The notes below the pieces were generated by a model. That model saw nothing but the letters and a program-made list of their open reading frames with translations. It was not told where the DNA came from and did not search any database. The position numbers were made by a program, and so were the translations under genes. This document shows, in pieces, positions 3 to 17,899 of a stretch of 28,747 bases of DNA. The stretch comes from a virus (lineage: Duplodnaviria > Caudoviricetes), in IMG/VR virus record IMGVR_UViG_3300027771_000073, positions 1 through 28,747 of that record. One strand, given 5' to 3'. The first letter of the stretch is position 1. Each line of letters starts with the position of its first letter.

Positions 3-3000
3 TATACTAAGTTGTGGGACAAGGCTTACAATAAAGATTATGTGGATGCTTTAGGTGACAACTATGTTAAAACATATACTAAAGATTATCAAGCTGACTA
101 TACAAAAGTTTGGTCTACAATTTATACTAAAACCTATTCAAAAGATTATAGTGCTGACTATACAACTGTGTATACAAGGATATGGCAGAGTGCAGACTTT
201 AGTAGGATATGGGACGGCCCAGTAGATTATGTTAAAGCATATACAGGTGCTGCAACATGGACAGGAACTCAGAATTATATTGTCAACTATGTTAAGACAT
301 ATACAGGTGTGCTTGATTATGTTAAATCATATCGTACAGATGTTACTTATATAGGTGAAGTAAACTATAGTAAGATTTATTTTAAAGCTTATGTAGGTAC
401 ATTATCTTTCACAGGTATTCATAATTTTGCAGGAGACGTAGCTTATAATAAACTTTATACAGGTGTTGCTTCTAACTACAGTATAGCTGGATATTTAAAA
501 TTATATGAAAAAGATTATTTAAAAAATTATACGGCAGTGTATACTAAGATCTGGGAAAAGGATTATGTTAAAGATTATAGTACTGACTATTTAAAAACTT
601 ATACAAAAATTTGGTCTAAGGATTATGTAAAAGATTATCTAAAAGATTATACTAAAATTTATACTAAAATATGGAATAAAGATTATATAAAAGAGTATAC
701 AAAAGTCTGGCAAAAAGCCTATACTAAGATATGGAATAAAGATTATCTTAAAATATATGTTGAATCATATGCAAAGGCTTATGTAAAAGATTACGATAAA
801 GAATATACAAAAATATGGGTAGGTCCTACTTACTATGGTGGCTATGAGTCTGGATCAGATGAAACTAACTATACTAAAATCTATACTAAAATTTGGTCTA
901 AAGATTATGTAAAAGATTACGTACATTCATTTGCAAAAGATTATTCAAAAGACTATAATAAATTATATGCTAAAGATTATGTAGATGTATATGAAGGCTC
1001 TTTTGATGCCAACTATACAAAGGTATGGGCTAAGATATGGGTTAAAGATTATGATGCCATCTATCTTAAAAATTATGTAAAGGCTTATGATGCCGCCTAT
1101 ACTAAGATATGGGTTAAGACTTATACTAAGGCTTACGATAAAATATATGAAGGTTCATTTGATGCAGACTATACAAAAGTATATGTTAAGACATATACTA
1201 AAGACTACTCTAAAGACTATGGTAAAGTTTATACTAAGACGTGGGCCCAACATTGGCATAAAGATTATGTTAAGACTTATACAAAGATCTGGACTAAAGA
1301 TTATACAAAGATTTATGCTAAAGTATGGGTTGGTGAATACAATAAAGATTATATAAAAGACTACACTAAAATTTATACTAAACTCTGGTCTAAAAATTAT
1401 GTAAAAGCATATGAAGGTTCTTTTGATGGATCGTTTGGTGCCAACTATACTAAGATCTGGGTTGGACCAACATACTATGGTGGCTATGAGTCAGGATCAG
1501 ATGAGACTAACTATACTAAAATCTATGCTAAGGTATGGGTTGGTTCTTATGTAGGTGTCTACAATAAAGATTACGTTAAAGATTATGATGCAGTTTATAC
1601 TAAGATCTGGTCTAAAAATTATGTTAAAACATATGAAGGTTCATTTGATGCTAACTACACTAAGGTATGGCAAAAAGATTATTCCACTGACTATCTTAAA
1701 AACTATGTTAAAGCATACCAGTTATCTTGGACTAAAACTTACACCACAATTTATACTAAAATATGGGATAAAACATATACAAAGATCTGGGTTGGACCAA
1801 CTTACTATGGTGGCTATGAGTCTGGATCAGATGAAACTAACTATACTAAAATCTATACTAAGGCGTGGGATAAAGAATATACTAAGGTATGGTCTAAAGA
1901 CTACCATGTAGATTGGGCTAAAGATTATGGAAAAATATGGACTAAAGTATATTCAAAAGATTACCTTAAAGATTATACTAAAATTTGGTCTAAGGTATGG
2001 GTTGGAGAGTATACTAAGCTTTGGGAAAAAGATTACCTTAAAGATTATACTACAGTATATACTAAGATATGGAATAAAGATTATGTAAAAAGTTATACAA
2101 AAGTATGGTCAAAAGATTATGCTGTTGATTATACTAAAATTTATGCTAAAGTATGGGTAGGAGAATATACTAAAGGTTGGGTTAAAGGTTACGTTAAAAC
2201 TTATACTAAAATTTATACTAAACATTATGATGCAGAGTGGACAAAAAATTGGGTAAAAACATATACCACAATTTACACTAAAGACTATACAACAATTTAT
2301 CTTAAAAATTATGTAAAGGCTTATGATGCCAACTATACTAAGATCTGGACTAAGAACTATCTTAAAAACTATGTTAAAGATTATGAGACAGACTATGTTA
2401 AAACATATACAAAGATCTGGTCTAAAAATTATGTTAAAACATACACTACAGACTATACTAAGATCTGGACTAAAACATATACAAAAGCATATGAAAGAAT
2501 ATGGGCTGTATGGATTGCGTATTATTCTGGGGTAACAGCTTACACATCACCAAAAGCATACACTGCATCTTACACAGGCATATTAAGTTACACAGGTAAC
2601 TATGCATCAGGTGGCTTCTCAAAAGATTATGTTAAAACTTATACAACAATATATGTTAAAACATATTCAAAAGATTACAATAAAGATTATGCATCAGACT
2701 TCTCACGTAACTGGCACAAACTTTGGCAAAAAGATTATGGTACTGAGTACGGTGCTGATTATGCTAAAGATTGGGTTGGACCTACTTACTATGGTGGTTT
2801 TGCTAGTGGTAGTGATACATCTGTTTATAATAAAGTATATGGTAAAGTGTGGACAAGAGATTGGGCTAAGAGTTATGATGCATCTTACACCGCAGTATAT
2901 ACTGGTGCATTTACAAAAACATACACTAAAGATTATAATAAAGACTATACTAAAATTTGGGAGAAGACATATACTAAAGTTTACGAAGGTGGGTCTGCTG

Positions 3001-3500
3001 GTACAAGAACATTCTCAGCTGAAGTATCATTCTTAAATCCTGCTACTGCAGTATCATATGTAAGTGTAAAAAATTATACTACCGGTCTACTGTTCTTTGC
3101 ATTAACAAATTACCTTAAAACTTATACAAAGGCATACACTAAAGTGTGGACTAAGATATGGTCAAAAGATTATAATAAAGACTATACTAAAATATATGCT
3201 GATGGTGATGATAACTATACTAAGATCTGGACTAAAACTTATACAAAAGATTACAGCACAGATTATACTACAGTATACAATAAAGATTATGTAAAAACTT
3301 ATGAGGGTGAAGCTATATTTAATTACAGAGGTACATTTGATGGTCTAATAAATTACAATAAAATATATACTAAGGTTTATAATTTAGATACTAACTTCCT
3401 TCAAACATATAGTCCAACATATACAGGGGATCAATATTTTGAAATAGCTTACACAGGTGAAAGAACATCACATTCAACTTATGTTGGACCTACAAACTTT
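3..3500 (+). repeat. Degenerate 12-nt (4-codon) coding repeat array, [YWF]-x-K-x
   Basis: Aromatic residue every fourth position (YTKI WSKD YVKD...), interrupted by 5-7 residue units and loop motifs at 816-869, 1458-1511, 1788-1841 and variant 2772-2825. Confidence 0.95.
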
Positions 3501-4697
3501 GTTGGATCACATAGTGGTGCATTAGCAAATACTAAACCTCAATTGTTTATTAAGAAAGATGATAACTGGGAACAAGCTAAGAAGCTATGGGTAAGAGAAG
3601 ATGATGTATGGAAAGAAGTACCTTACTTCCATAGTAAAGAAGGTGGTAATTGGAAACTTGTAAACATAGGATATAAACATACAGATGTATATCTTGATTC
3701 CCATGTAGGTAGTGCTCAAGCTAATACAGCTAGTGAATATTATTTAAGAGGTGAAAATGATACAACTGCTACTCCAGATACGTTAGGAGAGTTCTCATCT
3801 AAAGGTTCAGCAACTATTACAGGACACGAAGGTGCTAAGACATCTTACTTTGTAAATGAATTCAACCTAAAAGAATTCTTAGATCATAAAGGTAGAGACA
3901 GTGGAACTTATCCAACAATGACTACTATCCACGTTGGTCAACAAAATCAATTTGATAATTATTTTGTAATGGGATCTAACAATGCAGCAAGACCTGCTAT
4001 TGATCTAACTGGATTTGCATCTATATCAATTAATCAAACAGACGGTGGTAGTGCTCAATCATTCCAACACTTAGTAAGAATTGTTACATATAACAATGGT
4101 TACATTGTAGGTGCTGGTGGAGCTGGTGGAGCAGCTGCAGATAATACAGCAGGTGCTGATGGAGCAAATGGTGGTTCAGCTATTAAGACTGATGCTCATG
4201 TTAAATTATTTGTAGAAAATTATGGTACTATAGGTGGTGGAGCTGGCGGAGGTGGTGCTGGTGGCTTGACAATGTATAGTGATCCGTTAACTGGTGACAA
4301 ATCATCTGAGTTTACTAACCAATCAGGTTCTGGTGGCGGTGGTGGTGCTGGCTTCCCAGGTGGTGCAGCAGGTGCAACAGCAAGTGCTGTAACAGCAGCC
4401 TCAACAGCAGGCCAGTTATTAGTAGGTGGTACAGGAGCTAAACCAGATATATCTACAACACATAACTCAAGAGTATCAGGAGGTACAGGTGGTGTGCTAG
4501 GTGGTATAGGTTATGGTGCTAATATGGATAAAACTGTGACAGGCGTCTCTACAAGAACAATTTGGGCTATGAGTGGTGATGGTGGTATACCAGGTAAAGC
4601 TGTTGATGGATTTGATGCAGCTAGAGTTCACTTTACAGGACCAGGTGGATCTAATAGAGGTAACATTGCTGGTGATGAAACATTCAAATTGGCATAA
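3..4697 (+). CDS. Giant aromatic-x-Lys-x tetrapeptide-repeat fibre-like protein with C-terminal glycine-rich adhesin-like domain (5' partial)
   Basis: The frame is open from the window edge (TAT ACT AAG TTG TGG = YTKLW), so TTG at 12 is not a real start. Repeats run to about 3500. They are followed by a W-containing linker (IKKDDNWEQAKKLWVREDDVWKEV...KEGGNWKLV) and Gly-rich motifs (NNGYIVGAGGAGG...ENYGTIGGGAGGGGAGG) resembling T-even gp38-type adhesins. Confidence 0.8.
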   Translation, partial: YTKLWDKAYNKDYVDALGDNYVKTYTKDYQADYTKVWSTIYTKTYSKDYSADYTTVYTRIWQSADFSRIWDGPVDYVKAYTGAATWTGTQNYIVNYVKTYTGVLDYVKSYRTDVTYIGEVNYSKIYFKAYVGTLSFTGIHNFAGDVAYNKLYTGVASNYSIAGYLKLYEKDYLKNYTAVYTKIWEKDYVKDYSTDYLKTYTKIWSKDYVKDYLKDYTKIYTKIWNKDYIKEYTKVWQKAYTKIWNKDYLKIYVESYAKAYVKDYDKEYTKIWVGPTYYGGYESGSDETNYTKIYTKIWSKDYVKDYVHSFAKDYSKDYNKLYAKDYVDVYEGSFDANYTKVWAKIWVKDYDAIYLKNYVKAYDAAYTKIWVKTYTKAYDKIYEGSFDADYTKVYVKTYTKDYSKDYGKVYTKTWAQHWHKDYVKTYTKIWTKDYTKIYAKVWVGEYNKDYIKDYTKIYTKLWSKNYVKAYEGSFDGSFGANYTKIWVGPTYYGGYESGSDETNYTKIYAKVWVGSYVGVYNKDYVKDYDAVYTKIWSKNYVKTYEGSFDANYTKVWQKDYSTDYLKNYVKAYQLSWTKTYTTIYTKIWDKTYTKIWVGPTYYGGYESGSDETNYTKIYTKAWDKEYTKVWSKDYHVDWAKDYGKIWTKVYSKDYLKDYTKIWSKVWVGEYTKLWEKDYLKDYTTVYTKIWNKDYVKSYTKVWSKDYAVDYTKIYAKVWVGEYTKGWVKGYVKTYTKIYTKHYDAEWTKNWVKTYTTIYTKDYTTIYLKNYVKAYDANYTKIWTKNYLKNYVKDYETDYVKTYTKIWSKNYVKTYTTDYTKIWTKTYTKAYERIWAVWIAYYSGVTAYTSPKAYTASYTGILSYTGNYASGGFSKDYVKTYTTIYVKTYSKDYNKDYASDFSRNWHKLWQKDYGTEYGADYAKDWVGPTYYGGFASGSDTSVYNKVYGKVWTRDWAKSYDASYTAVYTGAFTKTYTKDYNKDYTKIWEKTYTKVYEGGSAGTRTFSAEVSFLNPATAVSYVSVKNYTTGLLFFALTNYLKTYTKAYTKVWTKIWSKDYNKDYTKIYADGDDNYTKIWTKTYTKDYSTDYTTVYNKDYVKTYEGEAIFNYRGTFDGLINYNKIYTKVYNLDTNFLQTYSPTYTGDQYFEIAYTGERTSHSTYVGPTNFVGSHSGALANTKPQLFIKKDDNWEQAKKLWVREDDVWKEVPYFHSKEGGNWKLVNIGYKHTDVYLDSHVGSAQANTASEYYLRGENDTTATPDTLGEFSSKGSATITGHEGAKTSYFVNEFNLKEFLDHKGRDSGTYPTMTTIHVGQQNQFDNYFVMGSNNAARPAIDLTGFASISINQTDGGSAQSFQHLVRIVTYNNGYIVGAGGAGGAAADNTAGADGANGGSAIKTDAHVKLFVENYGTIGGGAGGGGAGGLTMYSDPLTGDKSSEFTNQSGSGGGGGAGFPGGAAGATASAVTAASTAGQLLVGGTGAKPDISTTHNSRVSGGTGGVLGGIGYGANMDKTVTGVSTRTIWAMSGDGGIPGKAVDGFDAARVHFTGPGGSNRGNIAGDETFKLA

Positions 4698-4706
4698 TTA
4701 ATATAT

Positions 4707-4714
4707 CATAAATA
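4707..4714 (+). promoter_or_regulatory. Probable T4-type late promoter variant (CATAAATA)
   Basis: One mismatch to TATAAATA, in the short intergenic gap, upstream of AAGGTG (SD-like) and the ATG at 4734. Confidence 0.6.
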
Positions 4715-4733
4715 AGTAGGTAAAGGTGAACCT

Positions 4734-7700
4734 ATGGCCAACCCACTAAAGATAAAATATTCAGGTAGTACATTCAACGGTCTTCAAACTATGACCAATG
4801 AAAATATGGATCATACTGTCCATCAAATTCTTACTGAGTTTGTGGCTAATACTGGTCCTGGAATTATTTCTACCTCAGGTGATTATACATCTATAGGTTC
4901 TTTTGTTGATACTAGAAGAACAGAAGGTGTAGGTCAAACAACACCAGGTGGTGCTACATCAACTGTCAGTACAACAACAGTACGCCAATGGCAAGGTAAT
5001 AGCAACAATGATGAGTCTGGAATGGTCAGACCATTAGAGTACGTTTCAAGTACATATCCAATTCAAGAACAAACAGACACAACATTAAATGCTTCAATAA
5101 TAAACAGAGCATTAACTAATTTAGTTTCTAATGGTGTTGGGTCTTATGTTATGAATCCTTCTCAACCAAATAGTCAATACACTTCTATACTTACTTTATC
5201 AGATACAGTAACAGGTAATGGTACAGCTTCTAATACAACAACACAAATTTGGAGAAGAACAACTGGTGCCAGCACAACAGCACTATATCCTCTTAAACTT
5301 GGTAGTAGTAGTGGTTCACTTAATGAAATGTCTAATACTAATCTAGCAGCATTTATTAGTAGGTTTAGAAATCAAATGATGACTACTGGTATTGGTAAGT
5401 ATGTATTACAGGAGAATGCTCCAGCATCAGGAACATGGTTAAGACAGGGAGTTGCTTTTACAGATAGAAGACATATATTAGGTTCTGGTAAAACATATAC
5501 AAAAGCTTATACTAAATCTTATGGTGCAGACTATTCAGCTGACTATACAAAAACTTATACCTCTGTATATGTTAAAGAGTATGCTGGTGAATATTCTAAG
5601 ACTTATACAAAACTATATGGTAACTCATATGAAAAAGTTTACGTAGGTGGTTATGCTACAGACTATAGTAAGACATATACTAAAACATATACAAAAACAT
5701 ATGATGGAGAGTATACTAAAACATATACTAAGTTGTGGGTGGGTGAAGTAAATTATACAAAAGATTATGTTAAAGATTACAACAAGGCTTATGAAAAAAT
5801 TTATACTAAAACCTTTACTGGTGACTATACAAAAATTTGGACTAAACTTTATGATAAGATATATGTTAAACAATGGACAAAGAATTATACAAAAGCATAT
5901 ACATCTGCTTACTTAAAAGAGTATATAAAGTTATGGTCAAAAAACTATGTAGCTTCAGAAACATTTGATCACAATTGGGAAAAAATATACACTCATGCAT
6001 GGACAAAGTTATATGAAAAAACATATGTTGGGGACACAGTGTATGGAGGTTCATCAGCTAAAAGTTATTTAACTAACTACGATAGAATATATGAAGGTAC
6101 GTATACAGGAGCAAAAGTATATACAGGTGCATACACTAGCGTTGTTAATTATGAACAGCATTATGCAGGAGACGTTGCATATGAAGGTACCTTTGATGTT
6201 AACTATGCAAAGAATTGGTCTAAGACATACTCAGTTGATTATTTAAAAGGTTATGGTAAAGCATGGTCTAAAGATTATATTGGTAATTACATTCACACAT
6301 TTGTTGGATCATATTCAAAAGATTACTCTGTTGAATATACACATAACTGGACAAAAGAATATAGCAAGATATATGAAGGACATTTTGCTGGTGGTGCATA
6401 TGAAAACCAATGGGAAAAAGGCTACGTTAAATTATATACAAAATTGTGGACTAAAACCTATACAGGTAACTATACAAAGAATTGGGTCAAGTCATATATT
6501 ACACAATACCAAAAAGTTTGGGAAACATCTTATGCTCAAGAATGGCATAAGCTCTATACTAAGATATGGACAAAAGATTATGTTAAGAAGTATCAAAATA
6601 ATTGGTTTAAAAACTATGTAAAAAATTATGAAACAGATTATGTTAAAGCCTATACAAAAATTTATACTAAGTTATGGGATAAGGATTATGTTAAAGCCTA
6701 TACTAAGATCTGGGAAAAAGATTATACTAAGATATATTCAAAAGTATGGTTAGGGTTATATACTAAAGGTTGGGTTAAAGGATATACAAAGGACTATGTA
6801 AAAGCATACACTAAAGTTTGGTCAGCTGATTATAGTACTGACTACAATAAAGACTATATAAAAAATTATGTTAAAACATATACTACAACTTATGAGGGTA
6901 CATTCACAACTGGCTATACTAAAATTTATGCAAAGGTATGGTTGGGTGAGTATACTAAAGGTTGGGTTAAAGGTTATGTAAAAGCTTATGATGCTGCATA
7001 CGAAGGTTCGTTTGATGCTAACTATACTAAGGTATGGCAAAAAGATTATGATGCAGTGTATACTAAGATCTGGACTAAGACATATACTAAAGCATATGAT
7101 AAAGTATACGAAGGTTCGTTTGATGCTAACTATACAAAGATCTGGAATAAAGATTACACTAAGATATATGAAGGTTCTTTTGATGCTAATTATACTAAAG
7201 TATGGGATAAAGAATACACTAAGATTTGGGTAGGTCCAACTTACTATGGTGGCTATGAGTCTGGATCAGATGAGACTAACTACACTAAAATTTATGTTGG
7301 TGCCTGGACTAAAATATATGCTAAAGTATGGGTAGGGGAATATACTAAAGTATGGACTAAGGCCTATGACAAAGTATATGCAAAGGTTTGGGTAGGTGAG
7401 TATACTAAATTATATGAAAAAGATTATCTAAAAGACTACACTAAAATTTATACAAAGATCTGGACTAAAGATTATACAAAGATTTATGCTAAAGTATGGG
7501 TAGGTGAGTATACAAAGATCTGGAATAAGTTATACAACAAAGATTATGTTGATGTATATGAGGGGTCATTTGATGCTAACTATACTAAGATCTGGACTAA
7601 AAATTATGTAGGGGTTTATACTAAAGTATGGAATAAAGATTATATAAAAAATTATGTTAAGACATATACTAAAGTTTGGACTAAGTTATGGGAAACAGAT

Positions 7701-10700
7701 TACCTTAAAAATTATCAAAAGCTATACAATAAAAATTACGTAGATGTATATGAGGGATCGTTTGATGCAGACTATACTAAGATATGGACTAAGACATATA
7801 CTACTGACTATCTAAAAAATTATGTTAAATCTTATGATGCTGATTATAGTAAAGACTATCTTAAAACCTATACAAAGATCTGGCAAAAAGATTATGTTAA
7901 AAGATATAGAAAAAATTACCTCAAAACATATTCCAAAGATTATGAAACAACATATGAGAAAGCATACCAACAATCATTTTCTGCCAGATACTTAAAACAT
8001 TATGAAGGCGACTATACTAAGATATGGGAAAAGAATTATGTTAAAACATATGTAAAAGCCTGGGAAGCTGAGTATGCTAAAGAGTGGCATAGATTGTGGA
8101 CTAAAGATTATGTTAAAGATTATTCAGCTGACTATACTAAAAATTGGGTTAAGACTTATACAAAAATATATGAAGGATCTTTTGATGCTGCGTATACAAA
8201 AGTATGGTCTAAACTTTGGGATAAAGATTATGTCAAAACATACACCACTATCTATACCAAACTATGGGACAAGGATTATGTAAAGACTTATACAAAGTTA
8301 TGGTTGAAAGATTATGATAAAGTGTATACTAAGATCTGGTCAAAAGACTATACTAAAATCTATGCTAAAGTTTGGCTAGGGGAATATACTAAAGGTTGGG
8401 TCAAAGGTTATGTTAAAGCCTATGATGCTGTGTATGAGGGATCGTTTGATGCTAACTATACAAAGGTATGGGCTAAAGATTACAGTACAGACTATCTCAA
8501 AAATTATGTTAAAACATATAGTAAGGCCTATGATAAAGTATACGAAGGATCGTTTGATGCTAACTATACTAAAGTATGGGCTAAAGCTTATGATGCTGTA
8601 TACGAAGGATCGTTTGATGCTAACTATACTAAAGTGTGGGCTAAAGATTATGGTAAAGACTATACTAAAATATATGAGGGATCATTTGATGCTAACTATA
8701 CTAAGATCTGGGTTGGACCAACTTACTATGGTGGCTATGAGTCTGGATCAGATGAGACTAACTATACTAAAATCTATGCTAAAGTCTGGCTAGGTGAGTA
8801 TACTAAAGTTTGGGCTAAGGTATGGACTAAAGATTATACAAAGATATACTCTAAAGTTTGGGTAGGAGAGTATACTAAAATTTGGCAAAAAGATTATACT
8901 AAAATTTATGCAAAAGTATGGGTAGGTGAGTATACAAAAGTTTGGACTAAAGATTATCTTAAAGATTATGTTAAGACTTATACAAAGATCTGGACTAAAG
9001 ACTATACTAAAATATATGCAAAGGTTTGGGTTGGAGAGTATACTAAGATTTGGAATAAGCTATACAATAAAGATTATGTAGATGTATATGAAGGTTCGTT
9101 TGATGCTAACTATACTAAGGTATGGGTCAAAGATTACTCCACAGACTATACTAAAGCATGGCAAAAAGCTTATTCAAAAGACTATCTTAAAAACTATGTA
9201 AAGAGTTATGATGCAGAGTATACTAAGATCTGGGAAAAAAATTATGTAAAGAGTTATGGTGCTGACTATACTAAAATTTATAATAAGGTATGGGTAGGAG
9301 AGTATACAAAGATCTGGGAAAAAGATTATGTAAAAATCTATACAAAGTTATGGTCTAAAAATTATCTTAAAGATTATGAGGCAGCATATCAAGACTCGTG
9401 GACTGCAAATTATGTAAAAGCATATGAAAAGCTATACACAAAAGTATGGACTAAAGCATATGAGGGATCATTTGATGCTAACTATACTAAGATATGGGTT
9501 AAGACTTATACAACAGATTATAATAAAGACTATCTTAAAAATTATGTCAAGGCCTATACAACAACATATGATAAAGATTATGTTAAAGCCTATACTAAGA
9601 TCTGGTCAAAAGACTATACTAAAATATATGCTAAAGTCTGGCTAGGGGAATATACTAAAGGTTGGGTTAAAGGTTATGTTAAAGATTATGTGAAAACATA
9701 TACAACAACTTATGAAGGTACATTTGATACAGCATATGTTAAAACCTATACTAAGGTATGGAATAAAGATTATGTTAAAAATTACGTAAAGACATACAGT
9801 AAAGATTATGATGCTGTATATGAAGGATCCTTTGATGCAACATATGTTAAAACATATTCCAAAGATTACACTACAACCTACGATAAAGATTATCTTAAAA
9901 TTTATGTTAACACATGGGCTCAACATTGGCATAAAGATTATGTTAAAACTTATACTAAAATTTGGACTAAAGACTATACAAAGATTTATGCTAAAGTATG
10001 GGTGGGTGTATATGAAAAAGATTATGTAAAAGACTACACTAAAATTTATACAAAACTTTGGTCTAAAAATTATGTTAAATCATATGAGGGATCTTTTGAT
10101 GGTTCATTTGATGCTAACTATACTAAGATATGGGTAGGCCCAACTTACTATGGTGGCTATGAGTCTGGAGATGATGAAACTAACTATACTAAAATTTATG
10201 CTAAGGTATGGGTTGGTTCTTATGTAGGTGTGTACAATAAAGATTACGTTAAAGATTATGATGCAGTCTATACCAAAATTTGGTCCAAGACTTATGTTAA
10301 AGCCTATGAAGGTAGCTTTGATGCTAACTATACTAAAGTATGGCAAAAGGATTATTCAAAAGACTATCTTAAAAACTATGTTAAAGCATATCAATTATCT
10401 TGGACTAAAGATTATACAAAGATTTATGCTAAAGTATGGGATAAAGAATACACTAAGATTTGGGTAGGTCCAACATACTATGGTGGCTATGAGTCAGGAT
10501 CAGATGAGACTAACTATACTAAAATTTATACTAAAGTATGGGGTAAAGATTATACAAAGATATGGTCTAAAGACTACCATGTTGATTGGACTAAAAATTA
10601 TGAAAAAGTATGGACTAAAATTTATACTAAGATCTGGACTAAAGACTATAATAAAGATTATGCAAAGGTTTGGGTAGGTGAGTATACAAAGATCTGGGTT

Positions 10701-12326
10701 AAAGATTACAACAAAGATTATCTTAAAAATTATGTAAAGACATATACAACAGACTACAATAAAGATTATGTTAAAACATACACTGGTGTGTATACTAAAA
10801 TATGGGAAAAGAATTACCAGAAATTATATAATAAAGCTTATGCTGATGCGTACGAAGGATCGTTTGATGCCAACTATACTAAGATCTGGACTAAAGATTA
10901 TTCTACAGATTATCTTAAAAACTATGTTAAGACATATACTAAGATATGGAATAAAGATTATATAAAAAATTATGTTAAGACCTATACTAAAGTTTGGAAT
11001 AAAGATTATGATGCTGTGTATGCTAAAGTATGGGTGGGTGAATATGAAAAAGATTATACAACAATCTATACGAAGTTATGGTTAAAAGATTATGTTAAAA
11101 TTTGGCATGCTAATTGGACTCATGAGTGGGTAACTAACTATGATAAAGATTATGTAAAAACATATACAACTGTATACTCAACTCTATGGGAAAAAAATTA
11201 TGATAAGGATTGGCATACTGACTGGTTTAGAGAATGGGAAAAATTCTATACTAAGAATTGGGATAAAGATTATGTAACTGTCTACACTGGTACATTTGAT
11301 ACAGACTATTCAGTTAATTATGGAAGAGTGTGGACTAAAGCATATGTAGCTCACTACGAAGGTTTATGGCAACAAGAGTTTACTAAGCAATGGACAAAAG
11401 ACTATGAGGCTTCTTATACAAAACTTTGGACTAAAGAATGGTTGGGTGATTATAATAAAGAGTTTATCTCAACATGGACAAAAGACTATCTTGTAGAATA
11501 TCAAAAAACTTATACTGCCGACTATACTAAAACATATTCAAAATCCTACACTAAAGTATGGACAGGTTCATATTCTGGTCCTGTAAGATATACAAAACTG
11601 TGGTCAGGTGATACAGAATTTGTAGGTACAAATTGGGCACTTGCAACATTTGTTGGAGCTTACACTACTGAGTATACAACAGGATGGACTAAAGTTTATG
11701 AGGGTGGCTACACTAGTGCAACATCATACATTAAAGAATATGAAAAATCATACGATAGAGATTATACAAAAGCATACACTGGAACATATACAGGTGATAG
11801 AGCTTATACAAAAGTATGGCAAGCATCTTATGAAAGAACATATGATAGAGACTACACAAAGACATATAGTACAGACTACGAAGCAAACTATACAAAAGAT
11901 TATTCAAAAGATTACACTGCTGTATACACAGGAACCTTTGATCGTAACTATACTAAAAATTATGACAAGACATATACAAAGATATGGTCTAAAATATATG
12001 TAGGAGAAGTGAACTTTAGTGTTGACTACAACAAGGTATATGTGGGACAATACAATAAGAATTATACAAAAGATTATTCTAAAACATATAGTAAGATTTG
12101 GGAAGCAAATTATATTAAAGAGTATAGTGGTGACTGGGCTAAAGATTATATCAAACTATATGGTGGATCATACACTAAGGCATATACGGCTGTTTATACA
12201 AAGATATATAATAAGGTATGGTCTAAAGTTTGGAACAAAGATTATAACAAAGCATACGTCGGTACTAACATAGATGATGAAACTGAAGTGATAAGCACAG
12301 TGAGTTTATGGGTTAGGACCGCTTAA
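4734..12326 (+). CDS. Giant 2530-aa tetrapeptide-repeat virion fibre-like protein (three-module anchor domain plus ~2250-aa repeat insertion)
   Basis: ATG with SD and a late-promoter-like element. The 254-aa non-repeat N-terminus contains three related modules (PLK..LQ/NEM..G.G....S.....DT/DR). Repeats span 5496-12266, then a short tail ETEVISTVSLWVRTA. Confidence 0.85.
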   Translation: MANPLKIKYSGSTFNGLQTMTNENMDHTVHQILTEFVANTGPGIISTSGDYTSIGSFVDTRRTEGVGQTTPGGATSTVSTTTVRQWQGNSNNDESGMVRPLEYVSSTYPIQEQTDTTLNASIINRALTNLVSNGVGSYVMNPSQPNSQYTSILTLSDTVTGNGTASNTTTQIWRRTTGASTTALYPLKLGSSSGSLNEMSNTNLAAFISRFRNQMMTTGIGKYVLQENAPASGTWLRQGVAFTDRRHILGSGKTYTKAYTKSYGADYSADYTKTYTSVYVKEYAGEYSKTYTKLYGNSYEKVYVGGYATDYSKTYTKTYTKTYDGEYTKTYTKLWVGEVNYTKDYVKDYNKAYEKIYTKTFTGDYTKIWTKLYDKIYVKQWTKNYTKAYTSAYLKEYIKLWSKNYVASETFDHNWEKIYTHAWTKLYEKTYVGDTVYGGSSAKSYLTNYDRIYEGTYTGAKVYTGAYTSVVNYEQHYAGDVAYEGTFDVNYAKNWSKTYSVDYLKGYGKAWSKDYIGNYIHTFVGSYSKDYSVEYTHNWTKEYSKIYEGHFAGGAYENQWEKGYVKLYTKLWTKTYTGNYTKNWVKSYITQYQKVWETSYAQEWHKLYTKIWTKDYVKKYQNNWFKNYVKNYETDYVKAYTKIYTKLWDKDYVKAYTKIWEKDYTKIYSKVWLGLYTKGWVKGYTKDYVKAYTKVWSADYSTDYNKDYIKNYVKTYTTTYEGTFTTGYTKIYAKVWLGEYTKGWVKGYVKAYDAAYEGSFDANYTKVWQKDYDAVYTKIWTKTYTKAYDKVYEGSFDANYTKIWNKDYTKIYEGSFDANYTKVWDKEYTKIWVGPTYYGGYESGSDETNYTKIYVGAWTKIYAKVWVGEYTKVWTKAYDKVYAKVWVGEYTKLYEKDYLKDYTKIYTKIWTKDYTKIYAKVWVGEYTKIWNKLYNKDYVDVYEGSFDANYTKIWTKNYVGVYTKVWNKDYIKNYVKTYTKVWTKLWETDYLKNYQKLYNKNYVDVYEGSFDADYTKIWTKTYTTDYLKNYVKSYDADYSKDYLKTYTKIWQKDYVKRYRKNYLKTYSKDYETTYEKAYQQSFSARYLKHYEGDYTKIWEKNYVKTYVKAWEAEYAKEWHRLWTKDYVKDYSADYTKNWVKTYTKIYEGSFDAAYTKVWSKLWDKDYVKTYTTIYTKLWDKDYVKTYTKLWLKDYDKVYTKIWSKDYTKIYAKVWLGEYTKGWVKGYVKAYDAVYEGSFDANYTKVWAKDYSTDYLKNYVKTYSKAYDKVYEGSFDANYTKVWAKAYDAVYEGSFDANYTKVWAKDYGKDYTKIYEGSFDANYTKIWVGPTYYGGYESGSDETNYTKIYAKVWLGEYTKVWAKVWTKDYTKIYSKVWVGEYTKIWQKDYTKIYAKVWVGEYTKVWTKDYLKDYVKTYTKIWTKDYTKIYAKVWVGEYTKIWNKLYNKDYVDVYEGSFDANYTKVWVKDYSTDYTKAWQKAYSKDYLKNYVKSYDAEYTKIWEKNYVKSYGADYTKIYNKVWVGEYTKIWEKDYVKIYTKLWSKNYLKDYEAAYQDSWTANYVKAYEKLYTKVWTKAYEGSFDANYTKIWVKTYTTDYNKDYLKNYVKAYTTTYDKDYVKAYTKIWSKDYTKIYAKVWLGEYTKGWVKGYVKDYVKTYTTTYEGTFDTAYVKTYTKVWNKDYVKNYVKTYSKDYDAVYEGSFDATYVKTYSKDYTTTYDKDYLKIYVNTWAQHWHKDYVKTYTKIWTKDYTKIYAKVWVGVYEKDYVKDYTKIYTKLWSKNYVKSYEGSFDGSFDANYTKIWVGPTYYGGYESGDDETNYTKIYAKVWVGSYVGVYNKDYVKDYDAVYTKIWSKTYVKAYEGSFDANYTKVWQKDYSKDYLKNYVKAYQLSWTKDYTKIYAKVWDKEYTKIWVGPTYYGGYESGSDETNYTKIYTKVWGKDYTKIWSKDYHVDWTKNYEKVWTKIYTKIWTKDYNKDYAKVWVGEYTKIWVKDYNKDYLKNYVKTYTTDYNKDYVKTYTGVYTKIWEKNYQKLYNKAYADAYEGSFDANYTKIWTKDYSTDYLKNYVKTYTKIWNKDYIKNYVKTYTKVWNKDYDAVYAKVWVGEYEKDYTTIYTKLWLKDYVKIWHANWTHEWVTNYDKDYVKTYTTVYSTLWEKNYDKDWHTDWFREWEKFYTKNWDKDYVTVYTGTFDTDYSVNYGRVWTKAYVAHYEGLWQQEFTKQWTKDYEASYTKLWTKEWLGDYNKEFISTWTKDYLVEYQKTYTADYTKTYSKSYTKVWTGSYSGPVRYTKLWSGDTEFVGTNWALATFVGAYTTEYTTGWTKVYEGGYTSATSYIKEYEKSYDRDYTKAYTGTYTGDRAYTKVWQASYERTYDRDYTKTYSTDYEANYTKDYSKDYTAVYTGTFDRNYTKNYDKTYTKIWSKIYVGEVNFSVDYNKVYVGQYNKNYTKDYSKTYSKIWEANYIKEYSGDWAKDYIKLYGGSYTKAYTAVYTKIYNKVWSKVWNKDYNKAYVGTNIDDETEVISTVSLWVRTA
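5496..12266 (+). repeat. Degenerate 12-nt coding repeat array with four copies of a 54-nt loop motif
   Basis: [YWF]-x-K-x units; WVGPTYYGGYESG(S/D)DETN at 7227-7280, 8709-8762, 10131-10184 and 10461-10514. Confidence 0.95.
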
Positions 12327-12346
12327 CAATAAGAGGACTTTATAAT

Positions 12347-13288
12347 ATGAATAATAAAGAGCAAGGAAAATTGTTTGATTATTATGCTGTTGAAGAACTT
12401 AGAAATACCTATTTTTTTATGGATTGGAAAAATAATACTGTTAATCCATTATACCCAGCTTTGTCCGAAATCATAAAGCCCAACGTAAAAATGACACCAC
12501 AAGAGCATAAAGAGAATGGAAATATTGATGATAAATATATTACTGGAGCCAGTAAAATGACACCACAAGAGCATAAAGAGAATGGAGATTTTGATGACGC
12601 ATCAGTAACTGAGCATGCTTCAACTGAAGCAGAGCAAGCTAATAGAACAATAGATGCCAGAGAAGAAAAATCAAAAGACCGTTTAAATATTAACAGACCA
12701 CCACCCCAGACAACATCTTGGGAGAGAGAGAATAATATTATGGAAGAAGAAAAAACCAAGGTTGTAGCTCGTGCTGATGATGAGAAGCAACCGGAGAAAA
12801 AACAAGAACAAAAACAGGAACCGAAGTTTCCGTTCAATGATGCAGAGCCAATCTTTGCTTACTACGGTAATGATAAAAAATCTCTTATGCATTTCATTCT
12901 AAGACATCCAGACGGCCCACAAGGTCAACCTGGACCTACAGACGCACACCAAATTCATAATACCAAAGAACATCAAGACGCTTGGTATTGGGTACATAAG
13001 CTCGTAGGTCAAGAAGCTATCAATAGAAATACTAAAAAAGAAATTGATCGTCTTGATAAGATGAGAAAAAAAGAAGAAGTAGGTGATAAGGATCGTCAGC
13101 ATAAAATGGATCAAGAGAAGTTGTTCCAAGCTAAGATAGATGCTTTTGAAATGGATGTGATTCGTAATACAACTAATAGAGATATGAAATCTAAAATTAG
13201 AAGATCAAAAAGTATTATGGAACTGACCGCTTACGTAGGCGCAATTATAGCATTGGAGAGTATGAATGGAAAACCAGCAACAGACTAA
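12347..13288 (+). CDS. Hypothetical protein (charged, low-complexity N-terminal half; helical C-terminal domain)
   Basis: 313-aa ORF with GAGG SD upstream. A possible second start lies at ATG 12740, preceded by GGAGAGAGAG. No recognisable catalytic motif. Confidence 0.75.
   Translation: MNNKEQGKLFDYYAVEELRNTYFFMDWKNNTVNPLYPALSEIIKPNVKMTPQEHKENGNIDDKYITGASKMTPQEHKENGDFDDASVTEHASTEAEQANRTIDAREEKSKDRLNINRPPPQTTSWERENNIMEEEKTKVVARADDEKQPEKKQEQKQEPKFPFNDAEPIFAYYGNDKKSLMHFILRHPDGPQGQPGPTDAHQIHNTKEHQDAWYWVHKLVGQEAINRNTKKEIDRLDKMRKKEEVGDKDRQHKMDQEKLFQAKIDAFEMDVIRNTTNRDMKSKIRRSKSIMELTAYVGAIIALESMNGKPATD
12488..12586 (+). repeat. Exact 33-bp direct repeat (12488-12520 and 12554-12586), 66-bp period
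   Basis: AAAATGACACCACAAGAGCATAAAGAGAATGGA occurs twice in frame, encoding KMTPQEHKENG. Confidence 0.9.
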
Positions 13289-14126
13289 AGGATTTATGTT
13301 AGTTGCTTCATTTTCTAAACCTTATTATGATGCAGCTGTTATGTGTGCTGATTCAATTAAAGATTTTTATCCTGAAGCAAAGATAGCTATCTATACACAT
13401 AAAGATTGGTTCCAAGAAGAACATAGACATTTATTTGATCATGTTCATTTGGAAGTGCCAGTCCATGTCCGAGCTAAGCTCTGGGCACTAACAAAAACTC
13501 CTTATGATATAACAGCATATATTGATGCAGATATATATTGTCAGCACCAAGACGTCAGGCATATGTTTGACGAAATAGATGACGAGCATGACATGGCAAT
13601 GACATGCAATAGACCGTACAATGCAAAAGTAGTTTATATAACTCGTGATGAAGAATTAACTCATTATAAGCCAGAACATAAAGAACTTATTAAGACAGCA
13701 AAAGTTCATGAGTGGGACTTTAAAGGTCCTGAAGGTTGTTGGCGTATGAAGTGGCACTGTGGTATGTTTGTTTATAAAAAGAACAATCGTACATTTAAGA
13801 TGCTAGATATGTGGTATAAAAATTATAGGACTCAGATTGAATCTAATCCTAGAAAGAACTGGCCTTACGATTTCCCTCACACGTTATGGTATTGGGATAC
13901 ATTTGCTTTTTTTAATACTAACTACAAAACAGACTACGGTGTAAAAATAAAAGAAATTCATTCTAAGTGGAACTATATCAAAGGGTATAGACCTGAGGTT
14001 GAATTAAAAAATAACGAAGAGCCAGTATTCTGGCATTACACAATACCAAATGACTTAGTAGATAGGAGCACATACAATGACCCCGGTATACGAGATACAA
14101 TCGGAGATTTTAAAATTATTAAATGA
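13266..14126 (+). CDS. Putative GT-A fold glycosyltransferase (GT8-like / nucleotide-diphospho-sugar transferase)
   Basis: N-terminal Rossmann-like start (GFMLVAS..Y...A...ADSIK), RAKLWAL..TPYDITAYIDAD (DxD), CGMFVY, KWNY and a C-terminal HY. Confidence 0.7.
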   Translation: MENQQQTKGFMLVASFSKPYYDAAVMCADSIKDFYPEAKIAIYTHKDWFQEEHRHLFDHVHLEVPVHVRAKLWALTKTPYDITAYIDADIYCQHQDVRHMFDEIDDEHDMAMTCNRPYNAKVVYITRDEELTHYKPEHKELIKTAKVHEWDFKGPEGCWRMKWHCGMFVYKKNNRTFKMLDMWYKNYRTQIESNPRKNWPYDFPHTLWYWDTFAFFNTNYKTDYGVKIKEIHSKWNYIKGYRPEVELKNNEEPVFWHYTIPNDLVDRSTYNDPGIRDTIGDFKIIK

Positions 14127-14829
14127 GTGGAAAACATTTGTCTGGGGCTTAGACATGTCAACACTCATGACACGAAAAGGAAAGTTCTTTAGAGAAAACA
14201 GATCATTGTATGCAACAAGCATTGAATGTTTAAACTCTATGGAGCATGATACGCATGATGGCTTTCCACCTGACTCACATGGTTACGATTTTAATCAGAT
14301 AGCTACATGGGTCAAGAATGATCACATTAAAGATTTATCATTAGCAAAAGTAATACAAGAAAAGAACCAGTGGCTTGATAACGAGTTGGGTGCATTGCTT
14401 GGTATAAGATTTTGTGCATTGAAGATGTGGTATCCAAAAGATGGATACATTGCATGGCACAACAATTGGAATGTACCAGGGTACAATGTTCTATTTACAT
14501 TTACAGAAACTGGTAATGGTTTCTGGAGACATATTAATCCTGAAGGTTCTAAAGGCAAGATTAATAAACCTATTGAAAAGAACTTAGTACATATACCTGA
14601 TGTACCAGGATGGCATATGAAGACTGGCTATTATGGTAAGAAGGAAGAAGAAGATAAGATTATGTGGCATAGTGCTTATGGTGGTGAGCCAAGAATGACT
14701 TTAGGGTATGTTGTATACAATGAAGAGATATGGAAAAATATGGTAGAAGATATTGCCGGCAAAGCATTAGTGTGGCCACTAGCACCATTTGATAAAACTA
14801 TGTTACCTAAGGGAGCTACGTATTCATAA
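14077..14829 (+). CDS. Putative double-stranded beta-helix / 2OG-Fe(II) oxygenase-like protein
   Basis: YPKDGYIAWHNNW...MWHSAYGGEPRMTLGY: proximal His, distal His and R-x-T arrangement, but H-x-N in place of H-x-D/E. Confidence 0.5.
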   Translation: MTPVYEIQSEILKLLNEWKTFVWGLDMSTLMTRKGKFFRENRSLYATSIECLNSMEHDTHDGFPPDSHGYDFNQIATWVKNDHIKDLSLAKVIQEKNQWLDNELGALLGIRFCALKMWYPKDGYIAWHNNWNVPGYNVLFTFTETGNGFWRHINPEGSKGKINKPIEKNLVHIPDVPGWHMKTGYYGKKEEEDKIMWHSAYGGEPRMTLGYVVYNEEIWKNMVEDIAGKALVWPLAPFDKTMLPKGATYS

Positions 14830-15254
14830 TGCCAAACAACACAGCAGGAGTAGAGTTACCTGAATATTTTATACCTTGTCGTGGTAGTATTATGGATTAT
14901 TATAGACAAGTGGTGAACAATCGAGGTTGGAAAAACTATCTTGTCACAACATATAATGATACATATCAAGGTTATGATAATGTATTTAAATTTAGAGCTG
15001 AATTAAATGAACGTATACCTTTTGATTATGATGCTAAGTTAAGAGAGCATATAGTTAGAAAATCTAACATACGATATGTTAATCATGGCAGAGATGGTAT
15101 GATTGAAAAGTTCTTCCTCCAAGATCATCACACACTGCTTCATATCATATGTAGCAAAAGAGTTGATACGTTAACACTAATGCATAGAGATGAACAACCT
15201 GATAAACAAATAGATGAGTGGCTAACAATTAAAAGAAAATATTATTATGAATAA
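14829..15254 (+). CDS. Hypothetical protein
   Basis: 141-aa ORF coupled to the upstream gene (TAATG overlap, GGGAG SD). Confidence 0.7.
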   Translation: MPNNTAGVELPEYFIPCRGSIMDYYRQVVNNRGWKNYLVTTYNDTYQGYDNVFKFRAELNERIPFDYDAKLREHIVRKSNIRYVNHGRDGMIEKFFLQDHHTLLHIICSKRVDTLTLMHRDEQPDKQIDEWLTIKRKYYYE

Positions 15255-15957
15255 CATATTTGTTGTAAAGACAATACCAGAGAAAGCCACAGTCAAAGAA
15301 AAGTATAAAGATGCTCATGTGTGGGACATCTTTTGGCAATGTAAGAATTACTACAAGAAGCCATTTAAGTTTTATTTACTAACAAACTTTACAACTGTTA
15401 ACCATCCTGAAATTAAAATTGTTGATATATCTAAATTTAAGTATGATGGTTGGTGGAATAAAATGTTACTGTTCCATCCTGATATAGATAAAGAAGGTAC
15501 TAATCTATACTTTGATTTAGATACCACATTCCATAGAGACATATCAGATATTGATAAGTACATATCACCTGGTCTTCTAACATCTGTATTTTGTTATTGG
15601 AAGCCAATTGATTGGTTAGACCGGAGTGCTCAACCTAAAGAATTACAAGACGATCCTGATATGAAATATCCATCTATGTTTAATTCATCTGTGATGGGTT
15701 GGCAAGGCCATACATTAACAAGTATATGGGATGACTTTAAAGATGATGATCAACGATACTTGTTAGAGTATAGAGGTAATGATGATTATCTAGGACACAA
15801 ACAATTAGATAAGTTGAAAGCTCTTCCAAGAGGTATATGTTATTCACAGTACTATGGAGCAGATGTTGGTTCTGAATTCTTTCCTAGAGATAAAAAGAGC
15901 AACATTAAAAGAGATAATTATTATATAAGGTTACTGAATGGTCCAGGAAAAGATTAA
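15247..15957 (+). CDS. Putative GT-A glycosyltransferase
   Basis: GWWNKMLLF, NLYFDLD (DxD), FNSSVMGW and YRGNDDYL motifs typical of phage/bacterial nucleotide-diphospho-sugar transferases. Confidence 0.7.
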   Translation: MNNIFVVKTIPEKATVKEKYKDAHVWDIFWQCKNYYKKPFKFYLLTNFTTVNHPEIKIVDISKFKYDGWWNKMLLFHPDIDKEGTNLYFDLDTTFHRDISDIDKYISPGLLTSVFCYWKPIDWLDRSAQPKELQDDPDMKYPSMFNSSVMGWQGHTLTSIWDDFKDDDQRYLLEYRGNDDYLGHKQLDKLKALPRGICYSQYYGADVGSEFFPRDKKSNIKRDNYYIRLLNGPGKD

Positions 15958-16684
15958 CTTAATGACAATTAAGTGGGGTGATAAGTTTGCAGCTGAGTAT
16001 CCTAACCTAATTCATAGAATGGCCAAACGTCACATGCCTTGTGAGTTTAATTCATATTGTATGACTGATGATCCTACTGGTTTAGATAAAGACATTATAC
16101 CTGTTGAATGTACAGAGAAATGGTTATGGGATGATATACTATCAATGAAGCAATGGTGGTTTTGGGATGCAATTAAAATGTCTTTGTTTGCTCCTAAGTT
16201 ATGTGGTATAGAAGGTAAGATATTATTTACAGATCTAGATAACTTATTTTTAAATAGACTGGACAGAGTAATTCAAACAACCCCTCCAGCAATAATAAAA
16301 ACAGATTGGAATGCTAATTATCATTTAGGAATGCATAGTGGTAATTATTTTCTTACTATGGGATTCAATGCTAGTTTAATTTATGTGGACAACACATCAC
16401 CAGTAACAAAAGAAATATGGGATCACTTTGTAAATTATTATGACAGAGCAAAAGGTTCTTTGTATAGTAGTGATGCATATTTATGGAGATGCCATAGAGA
16501 TAAGATTAATACATATCCTGAAGGTACTGTATACTCACATAGTAGAGGTGCAAAGTATCCTGATCAACAAAAAGGAAAGTATAGATCAGATCATGAGGTC
16601 TGTGTTTTTATGGAAGACCATGAACCTGATCCTTTAGATATAAAAAAAGGTTGGGAGGCTGACTTATGCAAGTTGTATCTGTAA
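15938..16684 (+). CDS. Putative GT-A glycosyltransferase
   Basis: TIKWGDKF..EY.N, YCMTDDPTGL, IKMSLF, ILFTDLD (DxD), FNASLI. Confidence 0.7.
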   Translation: MVQEKINLMTIKWGDKFAAEYPNLIHRMAKRHMPCEFNSYCMTDDPTGLDKDIIPVECTEKWLWDDILSMKQWWFWDAIKMSLFAPKLCGIEGKILFTDLDNLFLNRLDRVIQTTPPAIIKTDWNANYHLGMHSGNYFLTMGFNASLIYVDNTSPVTKEIWDHFVNYYDRAKGSLYSSDAYLWRCHRDKINTYPEGTVYSHSRGAKYPDQQKGKYRSDHEVCVFMEDHEPDPLDIKKGWEADLCKLYL

Positions 16685-17337
16685 AGGTTGGTAAACTATA
16701 TGGTGTTGAATATGTCAACCAGTTATATAAACAACTGTTGACCTTCCATAAAGATTGTGTATACTATTGTATGACAGATGACCCAGAAGGGTTACATAAA
16801 GACATACAGATAATAAAAATTACTGATAGCTTTAAAGAACGTAAGTGGTGGAACAAGATAAAGTTATTTGAACCAGGTCTTTTTAATGAGCCTACTATCT
16901 ACTTAGATTTAGATTGTTACATACATACACCATTAGATAAGTTCCTAGAAACCTCTCATCCTGATAAACTAAACATTCTTAAAACAGCATGGTTCAGTGA
17001 TGGTATAGCAAAAAAAATACATATGTGTAATGTTAACTCATCTATAATGGTTATTAATGATCATAATTGTGAGCCTATGTGGAAAGAGTGCCATGACCAT
17101 ATAGATCGAATGTACAAGAGTTTCTATGGGTTAGATCCATGGTTGTACAGGAGACATATGAGTAGCATGCAATTCTTTCAACCTGGGTTAGCTTATTCAT
17201 TTAAACATGGTTGTATGTATCCATTAGATATAGAACAAAATAAATTAAGACAATTACCAGTATGCATATTTGATGATGCACAAAATAGAAAAGAGGTGTT
17301 AGATGGACTATGGCAAAGTTCAAAAGTTATGGGCTAA
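16666..17337 (+). CDS. Putative GT-A glycosyltransferase
   Basis: VKVGKLYGVEYVNQL, YCMTDDPEGL, WWNKIKLF, IYLDLD (DxD), NSSIMV; paralogous to the two preceding ORFs. Confidence 0.7.
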   Translation: MQVVSVKVGKLYGVEYVNQLYKQLLTFHKDCVYYCMTDDPEGLHKDIQIIKITDSFKERKWWNKIKLFEPGLFNEPTIYLDLDCYIHTPLDKFLETSHPDKLNILKTAWFSDGIAKKIHMCNVNSSIMVINDHNCEPMWKECHDHIDRMYKSFYGLDPWLYRRHMSSMQFFQPGLAYSFKHGCMYPLDIEQNKLRQLPVCIFDDAQNRKEVLDGLWQSSKVMG

Positions 17338-17899
17338 AGGATTAGGCTACGTAGCTGATAACCACATATACAAATACAAAGATTATTCAGAAGCAGTATT
17401 TGATACTCAGATTGAAAGTAAGGAATGGCTTTGTCATCAATTAAAAAAAGTTAAACCTGATGTTAAACACATATCAATATTAGCTAGTTGGTATGGATTA
17501 GTTGCTGTACCATTTTTATATGAAACCTTTGGTGAGATAGATATTGATCTATATGATGTGGATGAGTATACAACAGACATTGCAAAACATATATGGAATG
17601 ATTATCCTAAAGTAAATGTACATACAAAAGATGTTGTATTTGATGATATTGATTATAAAGGTGAAGTAATTATTAACACATCCTGTGAGCATATGATGGA
17701 TATGAAGTACATTACAAAAAATTATAATGATAAACTATTTGTATTTCAAAGTAACGATAATAGTAATGTTAAATGGTTACATATCAATTGTGCTATGAAC
17801 CAAGGAGAGCTGATAGAGCAAGCAGGGTTAACAGATATTAAATATGCTGGTTCAAAAATAATATATGAGCATAAGAGAATAATGGTGATAGGTAAATGA
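17303..17899 (+). CDS. Putative class I SAM-dependent methyltransferase-like protein
   Basis: ESKEWL, ISILASWYG (motif I-like), IDLYDVD (acidic motif II), KDV, IINTSCEHM, FVFQSN. Confidence 0.6.
   Translation: MDYGKVQKLWAKGLGYVADNHIYKYKDYSEAVFDTQIESKEWLCHQLKKVKPDVKHISILASWYGLVAVPFLYETFGEIDIDLYDVDEYTTDIAKHIWNDYPKVNVHTKDVVFDDIDYKGEVIINTSCEHMMDMKYITKNYNDKLFVFQSNDNSNVKWLHINCAMNQGELIEQAGLTDIKYAGSKIIYEHKRIMVIGK

Follow-up and report, generated by a model that had tools for sequence, protein, structure and literature searches.

The window analysed here, the whole 28,747-nucleotide stretch of the IMG/VR virus record IMGVR_UViG_3300027771_000073, is a 28.7-kb fragment of a marine T4-like myophage in which neck, gp15, terminase and sheath genes lie downstream of the open reading frame (ORF) that is our subject. 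The product of this ORF (the query) has 2,530 amino acids (aa), and 2,254 of them (aa 255-2508) form an insert in which every fourth residue is aromatic, with 519 aromatic-to-aromatic steps equal to 4, and in which Lys and Arg outnumber Asp and Glu (365 versus 273), giving a net positive charge. Our findings suggest that the protein is probably a virion fibre whose terminal residues form one anchor, while the 2,254 residues between them would form a branched tree of two-stranded antiparallel beta-ribbons. The ORF and its anchor are laid out as follows.

4734..12326, plus strand: ORF of 2,530 aa, with a three-module anchor, the aromatic four-residue repeat insert and a closing strand
4734..5006, plus strand: anchor module 1 (aa 1-91), with a 13-residue hairpin loop
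5025..5270, plus strand: anchor module 2 (aa 98-179), with a 6-residue hairpin loop; of the modules, the best match to the Gp10_C profile
5286..5495, plus strand: anchor module 3, N-terminal part through its opening strand (aa 185-254)
12258..12323, plus strand: closing strand of module 3, at the extreme C-terminus (aa 2509-2530)

The first-pass annotation of this DNA had described three related modules at the N-terminus, the third of which finds its closing strand only at the far end of the chain, and had concluded that the two termini come together. The six motifs on which it relied are all present (residues 52-62, 76-88, 150-159, 166-178, 238-253 and 2516-2530), and the closing strand of module 3 does lie at the extreme C-terminus, across a gap of 2,262 residues compared with loops of 13 residues in module 1 and 6 in module 2. 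HHalign comparison of family profiles relates the modules to one another (97.7% for modules 1 and 2, 98.0% for 1 and 3, 99.5% for 2 and 3), and in the last of these alignments the closing strand of module 2 stands opposite the extreme C-terminus. The modules are longer than first noted, running through a P[LI]K strand, an EM helix, a GxGxY strand, a Pro loop, a GTW strand, a loop and a closing LW[RK] strand. The family is large, with 765 matches (120 of them listed) and, counted separately, 283 clusters at 50% identity (150 of them listed). Closure was assessed in 268 sequences (267 search matches and the query) placed by profile alignment. The opening Asp of module 3 is aligned in 249 of these, 19 being unaligned at that column, and 225 of the 249 end in the terminal motif, a degree of conservation that makes closure more than chance; the other 24 are mostly cut fragments, and three carry a variant motif outside the search pattern. 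The distance from this Asp to the terminal Trp spans 16-2,282 residues among the 225. Eight short relatives end in [IV]STVSLWVRTA, and seven of them share the exact last 11 residues of the query.

Structural models of two natural relatives agree with this arrangement. The AlphaFold2 model of P0008 (101 rows) has a mean predicted local distance difference test (pLDDT) of 85 and strands at 240-264 and 316-348, its last two blocks reaching pLDDT 92 and 97, and that of the insert-free P0229 (109 rows) has pLDDT 90, a predicted template modelling score (pTM) of 0.89 and strands at 251-257 and 259-271. Strand pairing was read from the strand layout and from structural alignments that reach the last residue, and on this reading the last strand of the short relatives is predicted to complete module 3 of a three-fold beta-prism flanked by helices. 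We acknowledge that two points tell against extending this to the query: confidence in the distal hairpin of P0008 is just 47-56, and the structures are predictions for natural relatives rather than for the query protein. The comparison of homologs by insert length that had been proposed alongside the first annotation finds the terminal strand retained at every length, including in the nearly insert-free P0229; together with the two models and the structural alignments this upholds the meeting of the termini in module 3, and we regard closure of this module by the C-terminus as nearly certain.

The insert, in turn, appears to run out and back along a trunk of two paired strands.

5496..6533, plus strand: outgoing strand of the trunk (aa 255-600), with six register bulges mirrored on the returning strand
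11223..12257, plus strand: returning strand of the trunk (aa 2164-2508)

The six register bulges of the query recur at matching offsets counted from Y255 and from Y2508, an arrangement with a probability of about 5e-9 if they were randomly placed, and the trunk bulge offsets are the same in the relatives L028 and L029. The Asp-to-Trp distance is 0 mod 8 in 96 of 225 sequences and 4 mod 8 in 25 (p 5e-11), and the corresponding counts among representatives at 50% identity (n=116) are 35 and 12 (p 1e-3); growth in eights by a repeat of four residues implies a paired gain on two strands. In the relative L038 (2,965 aa) many bulges follow one another at mirrored positions and the turn is at the centre; this protein, whose gene (10001-18898) adjoins that of a 3,243-aa repeat protein (260-9991), reads as a single hairpin with about 1,350 residues in each direction. 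Mutual information between arms peaks solely at register shifts from -2 to +6, centred on +2, and the covariation peak reaches z 19.7 in L038 (232 rungs) and 5.8 in the query trunk. Each aromatic would sit opposite position 3 of the other strand, which fits the +2 shift. In stems defined by their bulges, Trp is more prone than Tyr to face Ala/Thr (p 2e-4 for the query trunk and 5e-8 for L038), and L038 also shows Phe opposite Gly/Ser (p 0.002), a preference that is not significant in the query trunk, where there are two cases. By a weaker test, the turn lies no more than 6 residues from the insert centre in 16 of 33 single-turn short relatives, where 4.6 would be expected.

These regularities bear on the proposal that the repeat is instead a beta-solenoid, a triple beta-helix or a disordered looping linker, so that just the anchor strands meet. 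Low model confidence in the hairpin and a weak hexapeptide-repeat match, which has no passing stretch, speak for such a structure; local stacking would not be expected to produce mirrored bulges, steps of 8 or antiparallel covariation across 232 rungs. The mirror is also not a DNA palindrome, because none of the gene's 12 longest self-matches is inverted, and this leaves no inverted repeat to explain it; we judge a solenoid or linker highly improbable. A second alternative is that pairing occurs between chains, two or three copies intertwining as a four- or six-stranded needle like the gp37 tip, perhaps with the closing strand swapped between anchors. Covariation is blind to the distinction between pairing within and between chains, a lone two-stranded ribbon could bury its aromatic face against another ribbon, and most phage fibres are trimeric, as are T4 gp10, gp11 and gp12 (table in PMC3004832). 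On the other side, the anchor holds its three modules in one chain that folds alone (P0229, pTM 0.89), the insert sits on only one module, and the three forks described below would be hard to thread in a bundle, and intertwined chains seem to us unlikely.

Besides this blindness of covariation, out-and-back pairing has to contend with a 5-residue step at 551-556 that has no partner on the returning strand, and with the fact that the turn is central in just 16 of the 33 short relatives. The step (window 6384-6401) is a Gly-Gly step whose offset is kept in L028 and L029, and it may be a fixed kink in the trunk. The out-and-back topology suggested at first pass is borne out by the conservation of the terminal strand, the models of relatives, the mirrored bulges and the blind tree fold that follows, and we consider such pairing of the insert very highly probable.

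Pair scores trained on L038 only were used by a nested-pairing algorithm, blind to tips and forks, that folded the 551 units of the query. The fold closes 255-2508 and comprises the trunk (255-600/2164-2508), a link (1082-1114/2128-2160) and the elements listed here, together with a segment shared with the upstream gene.

6543..7967, plus strand: predicted arm A hairpin (aa 604-837/841-1078, 59 rungs), tip motif at 7227-7283
8085..9389, plus strand: predicted arm B hairpin (aa 1118-1331/1335-1552, 54 rungs), tip motif at 8709-8765
9399..11105, plus strand: predicted upper trunk (aa 1556-1724/1956-2124), ending in a fork with arms C and D
Tip at 10131-10187, plus strand: predicted arm C (aa 1736-1805/1809-1882)
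Tip at 10461-10517, plus strand: predicted short arm D (aa 1886-1915/1919-1952), the weakest stem
9786..10721, plus strand: segment in common with the upstream gene (937 nt, 83% identical; aa 1685-1996), with an ungapped core at aa 1717-1963

All four tips of the blind fold land on YYGGY, in four identical tip motifs (GPTYYGG). The score of 235.5 compares with 92±8 for unit shuffles (n=25), 107±8 for 8-unit shuffles (n=25) and 139±11 for 25-unit shuffles (n=20). The relative L028, which is 75% identical to the query in alignment, folds into the same topology (282.6 versus 153±10 in 40 shuffles), and its landmark-to-landmark changes of +16, +52, +72, 0 and +36 correspond to three paired expansions of 16, 36 and 36. 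The ends of the segment shared with the upstream gene sum to 3,681, and those of its core to 3,680, the pairing sum of the upper trunk; these ends are predicted pairing partners, which implies that a closed subtree was copied.

Where the predicted stems meet, three fork motifs can be recognized, [YW]-A-x-[EH]-W-H-[KR], Y-Q-x-S-[WF] and [WY]-H-x-[DN]-W, at the following positions.

6531..6551, plus strand: fork 1, J1 (aa 600-606), with J2 at 7965-7979 and J3 at 11211-11225
8073..8093, plus strand: fork 2, J1 (aa 1114-1120), with J2 at 9387-9401 and J3 at 11103-11117
9915..9935, plus strand: fork 3, J1 (aa 1728-1734), with J2 at 10389-10403 and J3 at 10575-10589

The query has exactly three copies of each motif, the nine matches all lie 0-4 residues from fork boundaries of the blind fold, and none of the motifs occurs in L038 or L037. 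In a separate observation, His residues are concentrated at each of the three forks; fork 3 could hold a metal site that bridges the strands, with H1733 opposite H1949 and H1731 opposite D1951 in the +2 register (sums 3,682).

Two alternatives deny the branching. In one, the insert is a single long unbranched hairpin on which the four GPTYYGG motifs and the His motifs are side loops or binding sites, and close relatives such as L038 can indeed be unbranched; yet the best unbranched fold of the query scores 149.8 compared with 235.5, the motifs are not mirror-placed about the centre, the four tips accompany three fork triads where L038 has none, and both the length changes in L028 and the shared subtree fit a tree, so that we find an unbranched query very unlikely. 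In the other, the branched middle arises from misassembly of a repetitive gene. In four public runs the contigs fragment at ~7,030-10,950, in the middle arms, and none spans the gene, which also weakens the case for the tree; all 30 bins of the gene are covered in each of the four runs, and the separately assembled L028 matches the query in tips, forks and order, with arms of different length, which leaves an artefact scarcely credible.

Several observations nevertheless count against a branched tree. The ends of the query close in 15 of 18 parameter sets and fail to do so in 3, and tip D is weak (z 1.4) and present in 9 of the 18. In L029 the blind fold recovered just the trunk and one tip region, and J1 and J2 stand 12 residues apart, twice, which the simple fork model leaves unexplained. 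The trees of three upstream proteins differ among themselves. Moreover, the fork patterns were defined after the forks had been seen, which makes their nominal probability too low; their fair tests are their number, which is that of the tips minus one, and their absence from L038. Weighing these points, we think it very likely that the insert is a branched tree with four tips and three look-alike forks, as predicted from its sequence.

The family ranges from an insert-free member through single hairpins of 40-300 residues and two-tip members to giants. At least five relatives (P0126, P0172, P0190, P0218 and P0230) have the aromatic repeat inserted in the loop of module 1, in P0230 together with a short module-3 loop, which indicates that equivalent loops accept the repeat. 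In six others (P0157, P0188, P0196, P0197, P0237 and P0244) non-repeat sequence is inserted inside the anchor modules or between them, which shows that several loops of the anchor tolerate inserts. In a FastTree phylogeny of 124 anchors with a midpoint root, proteins longer than 1,200 aa fall in at least four separate places, and repeated expansion of the insert is supported, though an insert-free ancestor is not implied. P0229 looks like a loss, because it is nested among long-insert relatives of 591-878 aa (FastTree support 0.966). The initial suggestion that the fibre grew from an ordinary beta-hairpin loop stands in part: the short loops of modules 1 and 2, the repeat in module-1 loops and the scattered giants agree with growth from a loop, whereas the apparent loss in P0229 and the insert already present in the loop of the probably related Gp10_C do not suit an ordinary one. 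Since that same loop of Gp10_C holds tens to more than 100 residues, the module-3 loop is better described as the place where this family habitually takes insertions than as an ordinary loop. Among the relatives, a 3,347-aa protein of phage C48C1 (16012-26055 of OQ984149, our locus L040), annotated as hypothetical, shares the anchor and terminal strand, has a version of the repeat that is rich in Arg/Ser, and carries several non-repeat domains embedded in the insert. As a further observation, locus L027 (7787-13410) holds two tandem anchor genes (841 and 998 aa); their repeat is a different one, 9 residues long and containing Pro.

Searches with the anchor found no family match in Pfam, PHROGs (0/101 members) or NCBIfam (one spurious row), a best E of 0.42 among PDB sequences, and no Foldseek match at E up to 0.001 in the PDB or among viral models. 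The ESM Atlas returned unnamed viral clusters only, the nearest named family being Gp10_C at 0.79, a lead only; GenBank phages contained no match to the query anchor and one record with a short relative. In the literature, which was covered largely outside subscription journals and supplements (phage-genome tables, for example), we found no account of the family or of a branched beta-ribbon. The Pfam Gp10_C model matched neither the query anchor nor, at E up to 1, any of 24 relatives, although T4 gp10 and 8/8 tested pattern-derived sequences do match as controls. When the insert columns are removed from the Gp10_C profile, it aligns with module 2 at 89.6% and a score of 32.8, below clear homology, compared with at most 15.0 in 40 shuffles and at most 22.9 in 23 unrelated phage families; the core elements compared were G[ST]xY, the Pro loop, GTW and the terminal WxRxA. 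Relatedness is tempered by how modest the likeness is elsewhere, at 70.5% for module 3, 2.8% for module 1 and no more than 44% with inserts left in, and HHalign reaches 4% at best against gp10/gp11 profiles built from T4 alone, inserts included.

Like the 'flower' motif of T4 gp10, gp11 and gp12 (PF21939; PDB 1EL6), the anchor has a last strand that closes the domain around an inserted loop. Unlike that motif, which is homotrimeric with one copy per chain, it has three modules in one chain with one of them extended, and the extension is an aromatic four-residue ladder of up to 2,250 residues, compared with tens to more than 100 residues in Gp10_C. The plan also resembles the tip of the T4 long tail fibre protein gp37 (collar D10 and needle D11), where the chain leaves the collar, runs out and back, and completes the collar with its C-terminal strand. 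The gp37 tip is an unbranched trimer in which three hairpins intertwine around metal ions bound by His at spaced His-x-His sites. In contrast, the ladder here is predicted to have two strands, to pair with itself and branch, and to be many times longer; it also lacks regularly spaced His-x-His sites: the insert has 16 His in 2,254 residues and a single H-x-H, at fork 3.

For both relatives' models the top five structural matches are all chains that contain an MABP domain, a beta-prism known from MVB12B (3TOW), Plu-MACPF (2QP2) and perforin-2/MPEG1 P2 (6SB1). Passages of PMC2881412 give the MABP signature as PXGY at the second strand, and the family consensus of the anchor has P-x-G-(G)-T-W in modules 2 and 3, module 1 being without such a Pro. 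MABP domains bind acidic lipids, and MPEG1 does so via an elongated hairpin from the same fold, according to parts of PMC6753088. These matches favour the idea that the prism is a membrane-binding MABP-type head, or that the protein acts off the virion, on the host surface or on lysis debris, an idea that we hold to be quite improbable. The gene context, a gp38-like neighbour and the globular domains embedded in the C48C1 relative suggest a virion fibre that catches host surface polymers.

The neighbourhood was compared across 38 loci, comprising 28 other loci with downstream DNA, 9 that are cut and the window's own contig. The same two genes follow the anchor gene in 28/28 of the other loci, and the same third gene in 25. 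Its place is fixed, ahead of gp13-gp18, and lies after a gene of about 2,000 aa, putatively of wedge/VrlC type by its position, and before gp13. This position matches the host recognition cluster of pelagimyophages, which is described for these and for cyanomyophages by Zaragoza-Solas et al. 2020 (PMC7029224); the passages of that paper available to us do not describe the repeat protein, and they read the glycosyltransferases as modifiers of the host O-chain. Immediately upstream lies a second repeat protein.

3..4697, plus strand: 3' part of the gene for the upstream repeat protein, with the same repeat, tips and one complete fork triad, and no anchor

This protein is complete in L001 (2300-9964; 2,554 aa, four tip motifs), and its C-terminus is a gp38-like domain (PF05268, E 6.5e-8). 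Were it folded out and back, that domain would lie near the base rather than at a tip. Downstream of the anchor gene, a cassette at window 12347-19344 includes a conserved small protein and glycosyltransferase-like genes (PF00535 below cut-off; phrog_1962 twice), as well as genes that resemble an oxygenase and a methyltransferase by eye; its first two genes are the pair found behind the anchor gene in the 28 other loci, and the cassette may modify the Thr/Ser/Tyr/Lys-rich fibre. Further along, a Staphylococcal-nuclease-like gene (PF00565; 24190-24621) stands between the small and large terminase genes. Neither a sigma-70 site nor a terminator was found at window 4400-4900, and TATAAATA has 3 occurrences in the window, below chance expectation, with none ahead of the 4734-12326 gene. 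At least half of the gene's sampled words occur in 18 public runs (16 labelled marine metagenome, 2 metagenome), and two RNA runs contain 6-11% of them.

In the mechanism that we propose, the first 254 and the last 22 residues would fold together into one three-module anchor, and the insert would pair with itself as a branched tree of two-stranded antiparallel beta-ribbons. Aromatics would lie above position 3 of the facing strand, with Tyr mainly above Lys/Gly, Phe above Gly/Ser and Trp above Ala/Thr, which would let each ribbon cover its own backbone without partner chains; length would change as 4+4 residues are gained or lost in pairs, and branches would move as closed subtrees. With less support, the anchor may be a single-chain triplication of the T4 gp10/gp11/gp12 'flower' module, docked on a three-fold site at the baseplate periphery or the neck. 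From there the tree would project as a Lys- and aromatic-rich, net-positive net, the first catcher of host surface polymers. The 622 residues from the base to the farthest tip correspond to ~200 nm at 3.3 Å per residue when fully extended, less if coiled, with predicted arm lengths of ~77 and ~70 nm. We take a single-chain ribbon carried on the virion to be the probable arrangement. We lean, more cautiously, towards the wider view of a polypeptide that folds like RNA secondary structure, with a four-residue stem code, one invariant motif for tips and, for forks, a three-part His/Trp motif that is possibly metal-stapled, so that a tree of ~200 nm grows from one petal of a single-chain triplicated collar domain, itself possibly the ancestor of the MABP prism, while its subtrees are lengthened, branched and swapped between genes.

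To our knowledge, protein fibres are bundles or solenoids that do not branch, and branched forms normally require separate subunits. What is new here is the predicted branched tree with its grammar of tips and forks, the insert-free and module-1-insert relatives and, likely, the origin of the anchor from flower modules. Newness rests on the predicted branched ribbon, as the anchor and its closure by the last strand are variants of the T4 gp10/gp11/gp37 plan, and an intertwined oligomer would bring the whole within that plan as a variant. If our interpretation is true, one chain would fork three times under a sequence grammar that can be read, which would amount to a new architecture and offer a template for branched nanofibres made by design, the phage collar module and the MABP prism may be linked, and a widespread, unannotated gene in the host-recognition island of aquatic T4-like phages would gain a structure.
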